A DNA stretch of 64,000 nt from an uncultured cyanobacterium (GTDB taxonomy: Bacteria > Cyanobacteriota > Cyanobacteriia > CAKZMO01). Every line of letters starts with the position of its first letter. Position 1 is the stretch's first letter. The notes below the pieces were generated by a model. The model did no database searches. It worked only from the letters and a program-made list of their open reading frames with translations, and was not told where the DNA came from. Position numbers and translations under genes: made by a program. The stretch is taken from NCBI GenBank assembly GCA_963719515.1, contig CAVRCJ010000003.1:352001-416000 (forward strand), in the 5' to 3' direction. Of the stretch, positions 8,729 through 31,721 are shown one piece after another.

Positions 8729-10060
8729 CTAACTGAATGTGAATACTCCCGACGTTCTTCCTGCAGAAGCGCTTTGCGAACATCCTACGGATAGAGCGCG
8801 GGCTTCATCGGTCACCCGATGAGCGTCCTGCTTCTGGGCCAGTTGGCTAGATATGGTTTCCCACATCCCCGCTACCTCGACTCCACAGGCAATTTGAATA
8901 CCCGAAATTCCACGGGCATTGATGACTTGAGCAGCGGCAATATCCCTCGGCTTGAGCGACCCACACTCAGGGCACCGATGAACGCGATCGCCCCACGACT
9001 TTTTGACCGCAGCGCCGCAATTAGGACACTCCTGAGAGGTGCCGTAGGGGTCAACCTTGCCGTAGTAGACACCGCGCTTGAAGCATACCCACGGCAAGAC
9101 CTGGTTCACGAACTGCCCAAGGCCAGCGTCCAGGGTGTGCTTACCTAGCATCCCTTTCGCCATGACGCGAAAGTCAAGGTCTATGTCCTTCGGACAGGCT
9201 GCGCCAACGGCAAAGATGATTTGGGCCTGGTCACAAAGCTTGTGGGCCAGCTTGAACTGCCAGTCAAGTCGACAGGCCGCTATCTGCTCATGCACCCGTC
9301 CAATTCTTCCGATGAGCTTGGCGCGGTTCTTCGAGCGCCGCTGCTTATTCTTCAGTCTGCGTTGCAGCAATTTAAGCTTGCGCTGCAGCTTACCGAAAAA
9401 GCGCGGGCGCTCTACCTGCAAGCCGTTGGAAGTGGACAGGAAGTACTCAATCCCTACGTCAATGCCAATGCTGTCCCCAGCAGGGATGACATCAGGCACG
9501 TTGACATCGGCTTGAATGCAAAGGGTAGCGTACCACCCCGAATGCTTTTTGATTATGCGCACCGTCTTGACCTTGAATCCGTCAGGAATAGGGCGGTGCA
9601 GAACGATGCGCATCGTGCCCAGCTTAGGCAACTTGATTTGGCTACCCGTCACCGGGTTTTCCTTGAACTGCGGAAAGAGAAACGAGCGGTATTGCCCAAA
9701 CTTTTTGAAGCGCGGGAAACCATGACCTCGCTCTTTTCTCGCAGCAAACGCCGCCTCTATCCGTCCTATAACGTCTTGAAGAACCTGCGACTGCACTTCT
9801 TTCAGGTGAGGAAACACTTTTTTAGCGGCAGTCAGCGATCGCTTCTGAGCGTAGTAATTGGGGTAGGGTACATCTGCTGGCATGATGTACTCCGACTGAA
9901 GCGAGCAGGCATTAGCTACGCAGCTTCTCGACTTTACCCAGTCCTTGCGTTCGCGCAGTGCATAGTTGTAGACGCCGCGACAGGTCTCAAGCCAACAGAC
10001 CATACGGGCTTCCTGCTCAAGAGACGGATAAATTCTGTAGGAGTAGTTCAAGGTCAACAT
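8729..10060 (-). CDS. tnpB: TnpB RNA-guided endonuclease family protein (RuvC-II Glu apparently lost)
   Basis: YSYRIYP, IGIDVG (RuvC-I), TSQECPNCG..CPECG zinc finger, RDIAAA (RuvC-III). Confidence 0.95.
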   Translation of the reverse strand: MLTLNYSYRIYPSLEQEARMVCWLETCRGVYNYALRERKDWVKSRSCVANACSLQSEYIMPADVPYPNYYAQKRSLTAAKKVFPHLKEVQSQVLQDVIGRIEAAFAARKERGHGFPRFKKFGQYRSFLFPQFKENPVTGSQIKLPKLGTMRIVLHRPIPDGFKVKTVRIIKKHSGWYATLCIQADVNVPDVIPAGDSIGIDVGIEYFLSTSNGLQVERPRFFGKLQRKLKLLQRRLKNKQRRSKNRAKLIGRIGRVHEQIAACRLDWQFKLAHKLCDQAQIIFAVGAACPKDIDLDFRVMAKGMLGKHTLDAGLGQFVNQVLPWVCFKRGVYYGKVDPYGTSQECPNCGAAVKKSWGDRVHRCPECGSLKPRDIAAAQVINARGISGIQIACGVEVAGMWETISSQLAQKQDAHRVTDEARALSVGCSQSASAGRTSGVFTFS

Positions 10061-10181
10061 GCCTCGATCATAGCATTTCTAGGAAGGGCAGCGCTACTCC
10101 TTAGAAATGCTTGCCACCGCCTCGCTCGCTTACATCCCGACGCTGCTGCTGCGCATACAGCGCGGGGCTTTCACGAACTAT
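8739..10181 (-). mobile_element. IS200/IS605-family element carrying tnpB only (no tnpA)
   Basis: Related subterminal hairpins at both ends (CCCGACG...AGCGCGG(G)GCTT on the + strand). The right end finishes in TCAC and the left end abuts TTTAG on the minus strand. Confidence 0.8.
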
Positions 10182-10217
10182 CTAAACGTACGGATGCGCT
10201 TGACACAGTCAGTCAGA

Positions 10218-28595: not shown

Positions 28596-28775
28596 TTAGT
28601 CGTCGTCGTCCTCGTCTTCCTCGCCTGCCGGATAGACAAAGCTCCGGGAGCGACCGGTGAGCACGGATTTACCGAGAGACAGAGCCTTCTGGGCTTCTAG
28701 CGCAGCCTGGCGCTTCCAGGTAGCCCGGCGCATGCTGCGCTTCGATTTAGATGTTTTCTTCTTGGGGACAGCCAT
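28596..28775 (-). CDS. rpmF: 50S ribosomal protein L32
   Basis: [21 protein letters not shown]. Confidence 0.97.
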
Positions 28776-28844
28776 GACCGAACCGTGATTCCACAACCTT
28801 TCAAATATAGGCTAAAGCTGCGGTAAGAGCAAGCCCAGAAGTCT

Positions 28845-29108
28845 CAAAGAGCAATGACAGGATGTTGGGGGTTAGCTAGCAGGGCAGCTAGATGTCTCTG
28901 GCCATAGCCGAAGTCGTACTTCAGGTTGTCAGCCCTTAGTCTTCAGGGTGCTGTTGTTCTCGTTCTCTACCCTCCAGCGAGTACGTCCGGCACGAACGAT
29001 GTCAGCTACCGTCTCATCTATGATGCGGAAATTGGTGGCAAAGGCATTCTTGTAGGTTACTTAGCCATCAGGGCAAGTTATCGTCACCTCGTACCAGTTG
29101 GCCAGTAG
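28845..29108 (-). pseudogene. Transposase fragment (ISNCY-like DDE)
   Basis: Manual translation LLANWYEV..DG*VTYKNAFATN..IVRAGRTRWRVENENNSTLKTKG/NLKYDFGYGQRHLAALL resembles the RWKIENENNNxLKxxGYxLEHNFGHG transposase motif; contains a stop and a frameshift. Confidence 0.7.
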
Positions 29109-29126
29109 CGTATTTCTCCCCGGGAT

Positions 29127-29165
29127 AGATCCCCCCTGCTTCACATAAGGGGGCTGGGGGGATCT
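29127..29165. repeat. C/G-tract inverted repeat of the common cyanobacterial dispersed type
   Basis: AGATCCCCCC...GGGGGGATCT. Confidence 0.45.
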
Positions 29166-29269
29166 CCGATATACACCTAGCAGCCAGAGTTTTTTTACGT
29201 CAGTTCTACCCTTGCCGTGTCGCGGCTGACCCTTCGCGCCTGAGCCATGTCACGGCAAGAATGGTCAGC

Positions 29270-29600
29270 TTACACCGGGGGGGCAATCCGCTTAGTGAGG
29301 ATACGCATAACGTCGCCGGGGTCTGCGGTGCGGAGAACCTCGGTGCTGTGGATGATGGGTAGGGGGATGGACCAGTCATTGATTTCCGCGTAGTCTAGCT
29401 TGTGGGGCCGCTTGCGACAGTGGTCTACGGCGTAGGGATGGCCGAGGGCAATGAGCCGTAGGCGAGTCGGTGCGGCCCTGGAGGCCGTTGATGATGTAGA
29501 TCATGTTCCTGTGGTTTGGAGGAAAGACGCCCAGGACTAGCCATCCATACGATGAAGAACGGGATGGCTACCACAGGATAAAATCGGCGGTAGCCATTGC
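29270..29600 (-). pseudogene. Frameshifted small cyanobacterial hypothetical protein
   Basis: Manual translation RLRLIALGHPYAVDHCRKRPHKLDYAEINDWS...PGDVMRILTKR resembles a recurring cyanobacterial family (xGYAExxDWS). Confidence 0.5.
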
Positions 29601-30189
29601 GTTGCTCGTACCAACGTAATGGTGATGCTCCCTGGTCGGTGTTGGCTCACTGCCAGGGGGCGCGCTAAAGTATTGGGCGTCTGATTGATGGGCACGGGTT
29701 AGGTGCCCATGGGTAGAAACTGTAGCGGCTGTTGGGGGCGCTGACAAGTGTACTAAGGAAATTTTTTGGTGGGGGCGATCGCGTTGCTAGCGCTTTCGGA
29801 CTGCTGAGTAGCAAGGAGGGGTTTTGCGATCTTTGCTGTAGGTATGTGGGCGATCGCTGCTGGAGTGCGATCGCTGGGTGAGTGTTATTTAGCGACTGAT
29901 GATTGGGGCTTTGCTCTTTAGCGAGAGCCATCTGCGCTCACTAAGCTTTGATTGTCAGAACTGCATAACTTAGTAGGCCGAATACCGAGATTTTCTGCGT
30001 CCCTGACTGAAATAGCTTCTATCCCCTATCATTTCTGGCTTGCAGCGATTTCCGAACCCGTTAATTTCTCACCAATAGTTAGTGAGATTATAGAGAAGAA
30101 GTCTCGGAGGGCACACAGCACAGCGCTTCACCACAGCTTTCATAAGTCACGTTCAACCCCTAAGAGATTGAACCTCAAGCTTCATCCTC

Positions 30190-30322
30190 CGAGTTCAGTA
30201 CTAATGCTTCCGAGAAAGTAAGGCGATCGCCGAGTTCAAAGCACCAATTGTCAAGCTCAGAGCCTCACCATTCGAGTTCAGAACCCCAACCGTTAAGCTC
30301 AAACCCTCAACCGCCGAGCTCA
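30190..30322. repeat. Degenerate 21-nt periodic repeat (heptad-encoding)
   Basis: GAGTTCA/AAGCTCA/GAGCTCA at about 30190, 30232, 30253, 30274, 30295 and 30316; the minus ORF 30201-30383 reads ERLSSAV EGLSLTV GVLNSNG EALSLTI GALNSAI. Confidence 0.6.
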
Positions 30323-30409
30323 GACGCTCGTCAAAAAACGACAGGCCCGAGATGTTCATAAACAGGCTCCATAGGGTATTCAACCTATATCGCTTTATTC
30401 AAAAGCTTA

Positions 30410-30754
30410 ATGATTTACATTATCCGCAGCCGCGCCGCTCCCGAGCAAATGCGCCAGATGCTAGAGATATTGGGAATATACATTAAGCTGGCTGTAGATC
30501 TCGAACGCGAAATCTTTGCTGGAGGCGGAGAGCTACACGCCGACTGTGAACTGATTCTGTTGAAAGATGGTAGTCAGCAAGCCGACATTTGGGGAGCCGA
30601 CTGGTATCCACTCAAACAAGCCGTCGGATACGAATCAATCATCAACATCCGCCCCAAAGCCAACAACCGCTCAATGGAAATCCAAGACCCTGCCCTCCGA
30701 GAAAACATTGACCCAATCGTACAATCGCTCTTAGGTGGTGTTCAATGGCAATAA
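30410..30754 (+). CDS. DUF5674-like protein
   Basis: YIKLAVD..GGGELHADCE..GSQQADIWGA..ESIINIRP..NRSMEIQD. Confidence 0.75.
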   Translation: MIYIIRSRAAPEQMRQMLEILGIYIKLAVDLEREIFAGGGELHADCELILLKDGSQQADIWGADWYPLKQAVGYESIINIRPKANNRSMEIQDPALRENIDPIVQSLLGGVQWQ

Positions 30755-31020
30755 ACTGGGACATCCTCAAAAGACAATACCTGCAAGCCGACCGAGCAAC
30801 CCAGCTTGACAGCCTTGCGCTGAACCTTACACGCATCCAACTGCTGACCCACAGCGGCACAGACGAGCCCGTCGCCCAGCATCTCATCAGAGAAAGCCAG
30901 TTCTTTATCGAATGGGCTGTCTCCAACATGGACCTGACAACAAATATGACCTTTGCCGCTGAACTAGTCGATCTACAGCGGTTACTCAGTCAGTGGAAAG
31001 TGACATCCTCCCGACGCTGA
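30745..31020 (+). pseudogene. Small helical hypothetical protein overlapping the DUF5674 gene, truncated by an IS-derived insertion at 31000
   Basis: Start overlaps the upstream gene; the last six codons come from the inserted element. Confidence 0.6.
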
Positions 31021-31391
31021 CAGCAAGCTGTACAGCGCGGGCTTCCTCAGTGACTCCCAGCTATTGCCGAGACATATCCTGAGATAGGTTTATACTCCGC
31101 CTGATGCCCCACGGCAGAGTTTTGAATTTTCATCTCCGCGAGGGAGGATACGCACTATGTGTCGCAGATACATTTGCAAACTGAGGAACGGGTGACTTGC
31201 AGCTTTCGCCTACGGGCCCGTCACACTCTTTGCGGGGTGTATCACCTTGCTATCTCTATCATACCAACTGCTAGCCTCAGCGCTGAGCGCACTATCGGCT
31301 GTGCATCATTTTGCGGGCGCACTTCGGCTAGCGCGACTCTCATCCCGACGCACACCCTGACGGGTAGAGCGCGGGGCTTCCTGTCTAGTAG
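31000..31391 (-). mobile_element. Non-autonomous miniature IS200/IS605 derivative (internally deleted tnpB element)
   Basis: Same end hairpins as the 8739-10181 element; right end TCAC; left end abuts TTTAG; residual 28-aa ORF at 31047-31133. Confidence 0.75.
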
Positions 31392-31721
31392 CTAAATCCT
31401 CTCGCTCTGATTCGCTTAGAAACGATTGGCACTGCTGCTTGTTGTGGCACTAGCCTAGCTCCACCACCTGCTCTTAAACAGTAGCTCTATTTTCGTCAAG
31501 CAATACTAGCGATCGCCCGCAATAATCTACGCTCGGCTTCAAATACTATCTCTATTTGGGCTTATACCTACGGAAAGATGGCTGCTTCAGCGCTTTGCCG
31601 CTATTTTGACGGTATAGCAGGTTAGTAGAACAAAAGACCTCTTTTGAGCTTGAATACCTCCGATCAAATAGCCACGCAGTACTGCGGCATGCCCAACTAA
31701 CCTTGTGCAAAGAGTTTCTCT

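Follow-up and report, generated by a model that had tools for sequence, protein, structure and literature searches.

A conserved structured leader predicted upstream of the omegaRNA in gene-less IS200/IS605-type elements of cyanobacteria

Background

What does a mobile element carry between its ends when it carries no gene? The question is raised by a 392-bp element in the window, i.e. the stretch of 64,000 nucleotides from an uncultured cyanobacterium that was analysed here. A sequence-only reading of this locus had proposed an RNA-only miniature IS605 element with a structured 5' leader complementary to its right end, such that in a parent element the two parts of the guide scaffold would lie on either side of tnpB, like a tracrRNA and a crRNA.

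Gene-less omegaRNA elements have already been published. PATEs are described as often encoding omegaRNAs that depend on TnpB in trans, and in the model of the same study guide-directed cutting favours the retention of the element (10.1101/2023.03.14.532601). Standalone omegaRNAs are reported to function in trans, with a biological role that is called unknown (PMC10691335). In the case of ISDra2, the sequence 5' of the 116-nt scaffold is given as dispensable for cleavage (PMC10097598), and TnpB itself is reported to trim the 5' part of the omegaRNA (PMC10278001). What appears to be new in the present family is a conserved 5' leader domain, of which we found no description in the literature that we searched.

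Results and discussion

A gene-less element with the ends of resident tnpB elements

The element and its surroundings comprise the following features (positions of the window).

31392..31395, minus strand: TTAG target tetranucleotide (TAM-equivalent), outside the element; precedes 53/53 copies
31000..31391, minus strand: ORF-less IS200/IS605 (PATE-like) element, 392 bp; 53 full copies
31344..31376, minus strand: subterminal left-end hairpin; the first 65-73 nt of the element are 88-95% identical to the left ends of resident tnpA+tnpB and tnpB-only elements
30745..31020, plus strand: small hypothetical gene downstream of the DUF5674 gene; 3' end interrupted by the element after codon 85
30984..30999, minus strand: flank-derived guide, the first 16 nt past the right end, placed by analogy with TnpB omegaRNAs

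In the genome to which the window belongs (G000; 5.28 Mb, 21 contigs), BLAST recovered 53 full-length copies of the element at 96.2-100% identity, which represent 33 distinct sequences with 14 members in the largest identical group. The right end reads TCAC in every copy (31003-31000 here), as it does in the resident tnpB elements, and the flanks differ among all 53 copies, both upstream of the TTAG and downstream. Taken together, the TTAG in front, the TCAC at the end and the differing flanks constitute the signature of the IS200/IS605 group: the target is a fixed tetranucleotide located 5' of the element, there is no target duplication, and subterminal hairpins are found at both ends, the left one at 31376-31344 having been recognised in the sequence-only reading. 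The boundaries and the strand proposed in that reading proved exact, and the element has no protein gene, its 28-codon frame (see below) not being conserved among the homologs. We therefore consider the element very likely to be a non-autonomous, gene-less member of the IS200/IS605 type, and the ends and the copy number suggest that it is excised and integrated in trans by TnpA. A stop-free frame of at least 150 aa occurs at only 7 of the 53 insertion junctions. The small gene that is interrupted in the window matched no Pfam or NCBIfam family, the guide lies antisense to the end of its ORF, and an empty site corresponding to this locus was found in none of four other genomes of the same genus.

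Potential helpers reside in the same genome, and together with the miniature they form a three-tier family with common ends: a 1.8-kb element with tnpA and tnpB (3 copies), one of 1488 bp (16 hits) in which tnpB is accompanied by a small divergent ORF, and the RNA-only element (53). The ends of both larger elements match the first 65-73 and the last 85 nt of the miniature. Their proteins carry the NCBIfam names IS200/IS605 transposase and RNA-guided TnpB (both over the cut-off), and 17 cognate tnpB frames are full-length and open with all three RuvC motifs. In one tnpB-only element (G000 contig C3:50421-51908) the divergent ORF, of ~60 codons, takes the place of tnpA, and two cognate tnpB elements contain insertions of about 130 bp (C13:120433-118817) and about 4 kb (C16:71606-66092).

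The window holds a tnpB element of its own, at 8.7-10.2 kb, for which the sequence-only reading had correctly noted that the leader is absent. With the cognate family its TnpB shares 36% identity, which makes this element the wrong comparator, the cognate elements being located elsewhere in the genome. This element (8729-10186) likewise has a TTAG target, and its left end is nearly that of a different, 17-copy miniature family (see below), of which it may be a relative rather than of the 31000-31391 family. The leader is absent from the resident tnpA/tnpB elements as well: the covariance-model matches in G000 number 53, i.e. the copy number of the miniature (150 of 1471 candidates scored). Because its interior has no similarity to the resident tnpB element that is detectable with nhmmer, the miniature does not appear to be a simple deletion derivative of that element.

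A complete omegaRNA at the right end

31000..31120, minus strand: complete TnpB omegaRNA scaffold, 121 nt; last 85 nt 85-88% identical to the end of the resident tnpB element
31120-31113 / 31101-31094, minus strand: omegaRNA stem 1
31108-31103 with 31007-31002, minus strand: omegaRNA pseudoknot, stem-1 loop to 3' end
31083-31079 / 31050-31046, minus strand: omegaRNA stem 2, with an inner hairpin; stem probability 0.93-0.94
31041-31010, minus strand: omegaRNA right-end hairpin, followed by TCAC
31121..31133, minus strand: A-rich linker between leader and omegaRNA

The right end had been called omegaRNA-like, and both its position and its fold are those of a TnpB omegaRNA, with the scaffold complete between 31120 and 31000. 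Among the homologous loci that carry the leader, two omegaRNA types were distinguished, namely type A (9 loci), which is cognate with the resident TnpB, and type B (11 loci). Each type tracks the ends of cognate tnpB elements (L300 and L185 for type A, L305 and L026 for type B). In eight type-A elements the omegaRNA helices and three leader helices taken together are 93.8% paired, with two-sided change in 8 of 46 pairs; this paired share was matched by 0 of 500 shuffles and slid controls reached 31-47%, figures that overstate the signal to the extent that the homologs are kin. The omegaRNA stems by themselves are 87-97% paired in these eight elements. Five pairs of the pseudoknot are standard in 8/8 and the sixth in 3/8, with two-sided change in none; in type B both strands of the pseudoknot differ in sequence yet still pair, as judged by eye. 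The linker in front of the scaffold is A-rich in both element types, has no variable column in the 53 copies, and is a candidate site for 5' trimming.

We consider it probable that the omegaRNA of the miniature is a working guide for TnpB in trans. A TTAG followed by a 12-nt seed match elsewhere in the genome exists for 0 of the 53 guides (for 3 of 53 at 10 nt), so that regulation of other loci is not indicated. In four of the five genomes with type-A miniatures that were tested, no TnpB with more than 57% identity to the cognate protein was found in assemblies that are 91-98% complete and in which repeats are often unassembled; the fifth genome has a TnpB copy at 75% identity with an internal stop. 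This weakens a strict dependence on TnpB, though the assemblies are fragmented.

A conserved leader behind a promoter-like box

31258..31266, minus strand: -10 promoter-like box TGGTATGAT; TA...T kept in 18/19 homologs
31134..31252, minus strand: conserved structured leader, ~120-nt rod, from covariation of P0/P1 and covariance-model hits
31243-31238 / 31172-31167, minus strand: leader P0; pairing probability about 0.77
31233-31229 / 31180-31176, minus strand: leader P1; pairing probability about 0.9
31222-31187, minus strand: leader core, closed by an apical hairpin of 3 bp whose loop varies (3-4 nt)

The leader starts right after the conserved -10 box and stops at the A-rich linker. The box was found at 31266-31258, where a promoter-like motif had been proposed, and appears to be conserved among the homologs: its columns include invariant ones and its distance to the leader core is fixed within each element type. 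The boxes were picked with a tolerant pattern, and a strict -35/-10 scan made no promoter call on the minus strand. A transcript would be expected to start near 31252.

The structure was analysed in 20 representative loci, from which near-duplicates and the late-found L392 were left out. Most homologs fold as one rod, and short hairpins follow 3' of it down to 31134. The sequence of P0 varies widely, and its strands score on average 5.3/6 with their own partner (at least 5 in 18/20) versus 2.2 when strands are swapped across subfamilies; P1 occurs in several two-sided versions. The leader core is 94.7% paired over the 20 homologs, a figure for which shuffle controls again overstate the significance, the homologs being kin, and the leader alignment contains 24 invariant and 13 near-invariant columns out of 91. 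One core pair that otherwise looks invariant has changed cleanly on both sides, from G-C to A-U in L273; the remaining two-sided counts in the core come from P2, in which three rows are misaligned by one position, and have little weight. At two core pairs all 20 homologs have U-G. The lineage of the window has undergone two changes in the core, by which the predicted fold is shifted; that it nevertheless reached 53 copies weakens the case for a strict function of the core. The folding energy of the leader does not differ from that of shuffled sequences (z -0.04; -1.16 to +1.17 in ten homologs), hence the structure rests on comparison and not on energy.

As judged from this comparison, the RNA domain formed by the leader is real and conserved. 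The structured 5' leader of the sequence-only reading is thereby retained, in the form of a rod whose outer stems covary and whose core is nearly invariant, and the hairpins that had been drawn in it fared less well. The proposed hairpin ACACCCC-GCAA-AGAGTGT pairs at 5/7 positions only, its ACAC/GTGT stem has probability 0.0, and its bases form part of the rod. The GACGGG/CCCGTT stem is indeed stable here (0.82-0.97) but private to this lineage, the GGG being present in 1/20 homologs.

Searches of Rfam 15 gave 0 matches at the gathering score in the window, one junk hit (E 2.9) in the 601-nt region, and 0 matches at E<=1 in seven homologous or sister loci. Likenesses to known ribozymes, domain V of group II introns, SRP and 16S rRNA, which were noted by eye, were discarded, as the registers misfit and Rfam returned nothing. 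An origin of the leader in tnpB, tnpA or sister miniatures was likewise rejected (best nhmmer E 0.75), and because of that value a leader frame that by eye resembled the RuvC-I region was also dropped.

Distribution of the leader

After merging of loci with identical flanks, the leader was found in 18 genomes with at least seven family labels. A diverged copy (L183) from a class-wide DNA search was used to define a core pattern, and 29 exact matches to this pattern were obtained from 185,579 species genomes. Fourteen of these are in cyanobacterial records and all 14 lie in gene-less IS605-type elements; the other 15 were taken as chance on the basis of the record titles. Further loci came from pattern and model searches, in which the majority of genomes lacked the leader; it was recovered, for example, in 7 of 151, 8 of 150 and 2 of 57 genomes (one of the latter weak, 22.6 bits). 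The covariance model separates true hits, at 60-120 bits, from the next ones at 28 bits or less. With a looser pattern in 400 genomes, one-mismatch hits were no commoner than in the reversed control (28 scored, maximum 15.5 bits) and one new exact hit emerged, L392, again in a gene-less element. A metagenome scan with a leader 16-mer yielded at least 120 stretches, with no homologous one among the matches listed; the best match (L127/L130) was rejected, as it consists of 28/30 nt inside an unrelated gene and L130 has no model hit. Viral scans gave 3 and 1 matches, none with the parts of the element, and the plasmid and phage collections no real leader match. In none of the searches made was the leader found outside gene-less elements.

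Since the same leader precedes two omegaRNA types, it behaves as a module, and its distance to the right end is 206-235 nt wherever a right end is present. In L234, L279 and L283 no left end is recognisable and leader, promoter and omegaRNA are kept. The latter two (in G104 and G131) stop a few bases short of a 417-codon frame that we take, from its N-terminal motif, to be a SasA-type kinase gene. Domestication of these two loci was considered and dropped: they are 96% identical over 1.2 kb, and therefore one inherited insertion explains both. Broken members also occur, namely L209, with an insertion within the omegaRNA, L233, which ends just past the leader core, and L312, which lacks the rod and begins at the hairpin directly before the omegaRNA.

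The nine-base complement

31180..31188, minus strand: leader 9-mer TTCCTCAGT, on the 3' strand of the rod (P2, bulge and start of P1)
31043..31051, minus strand: right-end 9-mer ACTGAGGAA, mostly the 3' strand of omegaRNA stem 2
31047..31133, minus strand: 28-codon frame, judged incidental

The exact complement on which the split-guide proposal was built is present (31188-31180 with 31051-31043, 9/9). It is only modestly above chance and is not a conserved helix. Among 2000 shuffles in which the leader was compared with the omegaRNA part, 3.2% gave a perfect match of at least 9 nt; when the element was shuffled in its entirety (300 times), 17% did. In the window copy, the mean probability that the leader 9-mer pairs upstream within the leader is 0.56, compared to about 0.055 for pairing with the right end. 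Among 19 homologs, 9/9 Watson-Crick pairing is found in one, i.e. the lineage of the window itself, and L213 has eight Watson-Crick pairs plus one G-U; in the same register 5-7/9 positions pair in six other type-A and 4-6/9 in eleven type-B homologs. The ensemble probability of pairing between leader and right end is at most 0.10 in 18/19, with L246 (type B) at 0.67.

The covariation that a long-range helix should display was looked for in the eight type-A elements. There the 9-bp helix has a paired share of 75%, which 201 of 500 shuffles attained as well (72% and 444 of 500 for the shifted register), versus 0 of 500 for the local structure. With a shift of 1 nt, 5/6 distant type-A homologs pair at 8/9 positions when G-U is counted, and the type-B strand reaches up to 8/9, by eye, with a segment just 5' of the right-end hairpin. 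In L235 the right-end strand has changed together with its local partner, from CTCAG/CTGAG to CTCGG/CCGAG, with a leader strand as in L231, and the ACTGAG segment is retained with its local partner in tnpB-bearing elements that have no leader.

A parent element with both leader and tnpB was likewise not encountered. Neither tnpB nor tnpA lies inside the element at any of the 20 leader loci (the tnpB near L215 sits beyond the element's left end), and the exact-pattern scan of the 185,579 species genomes contained no leader-bearing tnpB element. The 28-codon frame had been interpreted as a fused start and end of tnpB. The GGAG-ATG, the frame (31133-31047) and a tnpB-like end are indeed there, the last being shared because the omegaRNA overlaps the 3' end of tnpB; its start, MKIQNS, is not that of the resident cognate tnpB, MKVTYQ. 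A similarly ending frame exists in 3/20 homologs (L262, L213, L272) and the ATG frame is absent in 10/11 type-B homologs; the frame is probably incidental.

Possible roles of the leader

The explanation that we prefer, with slightly more than even confidence, is that of a gene-less IS605 RNA cargo whose leader protects or loads the omegaRNA precursor. On this account TnpA from the three tnpA+tnpB copies would move the element in trans to TTAG sites, as the common ends and the peel-and-paste mechanism suggest. From its own promoter the element would then express an RNA of ~250 nt plus flank, consisting of the 5' leader, the A-rich linker, the complete omegaRNA and a guide that equals the downstream flank; this anatomy was drawn by sequence comparison, and transcription is presumed. 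Resident TnpB (17 open copies) would load this omegaRNA and cut an element-free allele (TTAG plus flank), and repair from an occupied chromosome copy would, by analogy with published work on other IS605 elements, restore or spread the insertion. Cyanobacterial chromosomes are polyploid and would supply such element-free alleles. The leader would stand in for the missing tnpB mRNA: most likely it shields the RNA at its 5' end and makes the precursor available for loading by TnpB, with 5' trimming in the linker, and does not belong to the mature scaffold. This role of the leader is the least certain step. For the protective or loading role as such we see the balance as about even. A near-invariant core with conserved loops exceeds what a mere protective stem would need, which argues against protection alone.

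An alternative is that the leader is a functional RNA in itself, e.g. an aptamer for a protein of host or element, or an unrecognised self-processing ribozyme, that captures TnpB or confers an extra activity on the RNP. The near-invariance of the core, loops included, across at least seven family labels and two omegaRNA types while the outer stems covary, the sharp gap in model scores, the retention of the leader in elements without a left end and its presence where no close TnpB was found would all fit such a role. Against it stand the confinement of the leader to these elements, the lack of an Rfam ribozyme or riboswitch match, the fold-shifting core changes in the lineage with 53 copies, and the unrelated leaders on other gene-less families, which agree more readily with a generic function than with a specific one; moreover, the retention in L279 and L283 reduces to a single insertion. 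We regard this alternative as unlikely. The opposite possibility, that the interior is filler or acts at the DNA level (as spacing or as a single-strand hairpin for TnpA) with the RNA incidental, would agree with the missing energy signal, with a recent burst of near-identical copies that requires the ends only, and with the mobility of 93-bp copies that consist of a right end alone (see below). It would leave unexplained the conserved -10 box at a fixed distance, the G-U pairs that are tolerated or, as in the case of the two U-G core pairs, invariant, and the preservation of the omegaRNA stems and pseudoknot, and it strikes us as quite improbable.

Two further readings make use of the complementarity between leader and right end. 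The leader could be a cis switch, whose pyrimidine-rich strand invades omegaRNA stem 2, so that the guide would become active only upon trimming of the leader. Such a switch has a precedent in AmaTnpB, for which cis-inhibition by upstream mRNA is reported and pairing with the omegaRNA proposed (PMC10278001), and it could draw on the shifted register in the distant type-A homologs, on L246 and on the type-B strand. Covariation is nevertheless found in neither register, the probabilities are low in all homologs but one, and some residual complementarity is to be expected because both local helices are pyrimidine/purine-rich and alike in sequence; we hold the switch to be improbable. The proposal of the sequence-only reading, a scaffold split across tnpB in the parent with leader and right end pairing like tracrRNA and crRNA, has in its favour the perfect 9 bp in the window's lineage, the near-perfect match in L213 and the 3.2% of shuffles, which applies to the comparison of leader and omegaRNA only. 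It has to contend with the lack of covariation, with the engagement of both strands in covarying local pairings, with an omegaRNA that is complete without the leader and with the 0/20 loci that have tnpB inside. It would have been the larger surprise had the evidence supported it; as matters stand it is unsupported and highly improbable.

Relation to known systems and significance

The family resembles the PATE-like elements of Geobacillus stearothermophilus (Meers et al., 10.1101/2023.03.14.532601), which are gene-less, share their ends with tnpA/tnpB elements, encode a TnpB-dependent omegaRNA and are predicted to be mobilised in trans; the conserved structured domain of ~120 nt, of which we found no description in that study, and the conserved promoter before the scaffold set the present elements apart. 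With the standalone omegaRNAs of OMEGA systems, as described in PMC10691335, it shares the co-occurrence of mobilised effector-less loci and effector loci in one genome and the action in trans (here presumed), and it differs from that description in being of the TnpB type, with a 3' guide and a 5' module common to two omegaRNA types. The scaffold itself is similar to those described for ISDra2 (PMC10097598) and AmaTnpB (PMC10278001), i.e. about 106-121 nt with a stem-1-loop pseudoknot before the guide and a terminal hairpin; their 5' extension is described as trimmed tnpB coding sequence, whereas here it is a conserved non-coding rod. Only the idea of a two-part guide is shared with the tracrRNA-crRNA split of TranC/Cas12 (Jin et al. 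2025, as summarised in PMC13565253 and PMC13639567): unlike there, the duplex is not conserved, no CRISPR array was seen within the 392-bp element and the scaffold is whole. The main text of PMC12873609, on 202 cyanobacterial genomes, contains none of the terms 'transpos', 'IS200' and 'TnpB', and its supplements could list the motif unnamed.

The family offers a clean test system, in which 53 dispersed guides and the cognate TnpB and TnpA occur in one genome, together with a leader for which a structure model exists. If the leader raises the omegaRNA level or its loading into TnpB in trans, this would explain how there can be about three RNA-only parasites for each helper, and would provide a natural 5' handle for the expression of TnpB guides; if the invariant core binds or catalyses, it would represent a new class of structured RNA. 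More speculatively, and in our view rather doubtfully, gene-less OMEGA elements may possess a whole class of dedicated 5' RNA modules, of which this leader would be the first to be described. As a specific aptamer or self-processing RNA, it would outperform the tnpB mRNA in capturing TnpB (or a host factor), it would be exchanged between omegaRNA types, and the persistence of the element would depend on it. Were this so, the several unrelated leaders known from this genome and class would have arisen by convergence.

Other gene-less families and minor observations

Two further gene-less IS605-type families are present in G000, one of 6 copies (C3:566935-567363) and one of 17 (C3:80401-80856), which have TTAA and TTAG targets, respectively, different leaders and a third type of omegaRNA, which is longer. 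A TAGAAAACGTA-like motif is common to the leaders of both, and the rod base of the 6-copy family is like that of the leader at 31134-31252. Another leader family (L025:1340-1620, L188:1340-1621, L196:1340-1622), in other cyanobacterial families, forms a rod with two-sided changes (by eye) and a small apical hairpin, i.e. its layout resembles that of the leader described here and its sequence does not. A further leader family is represented on the gene-less element L007:150-465.

At 28900-30400 the window also contains 1.5 kb in which no ORF reaches 90 aa. Short direct repeats occur there near 30180-30330, and the stretch is flanked by the DUF5674 gene and by a gene at 28598-28776 that we presume to be rpmF-like. 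Finally, in G050 and G022 six loci (L315, L320, L324, L327, L316 and L321) consist of a right end only, 93 bp long (91 bp in one), after a TTAG. These elements start directly past an internal TCAC of the type-B omegaRNA, which suggests that an internal sequence mimicking the end motif gave rise to one-ended transposition.
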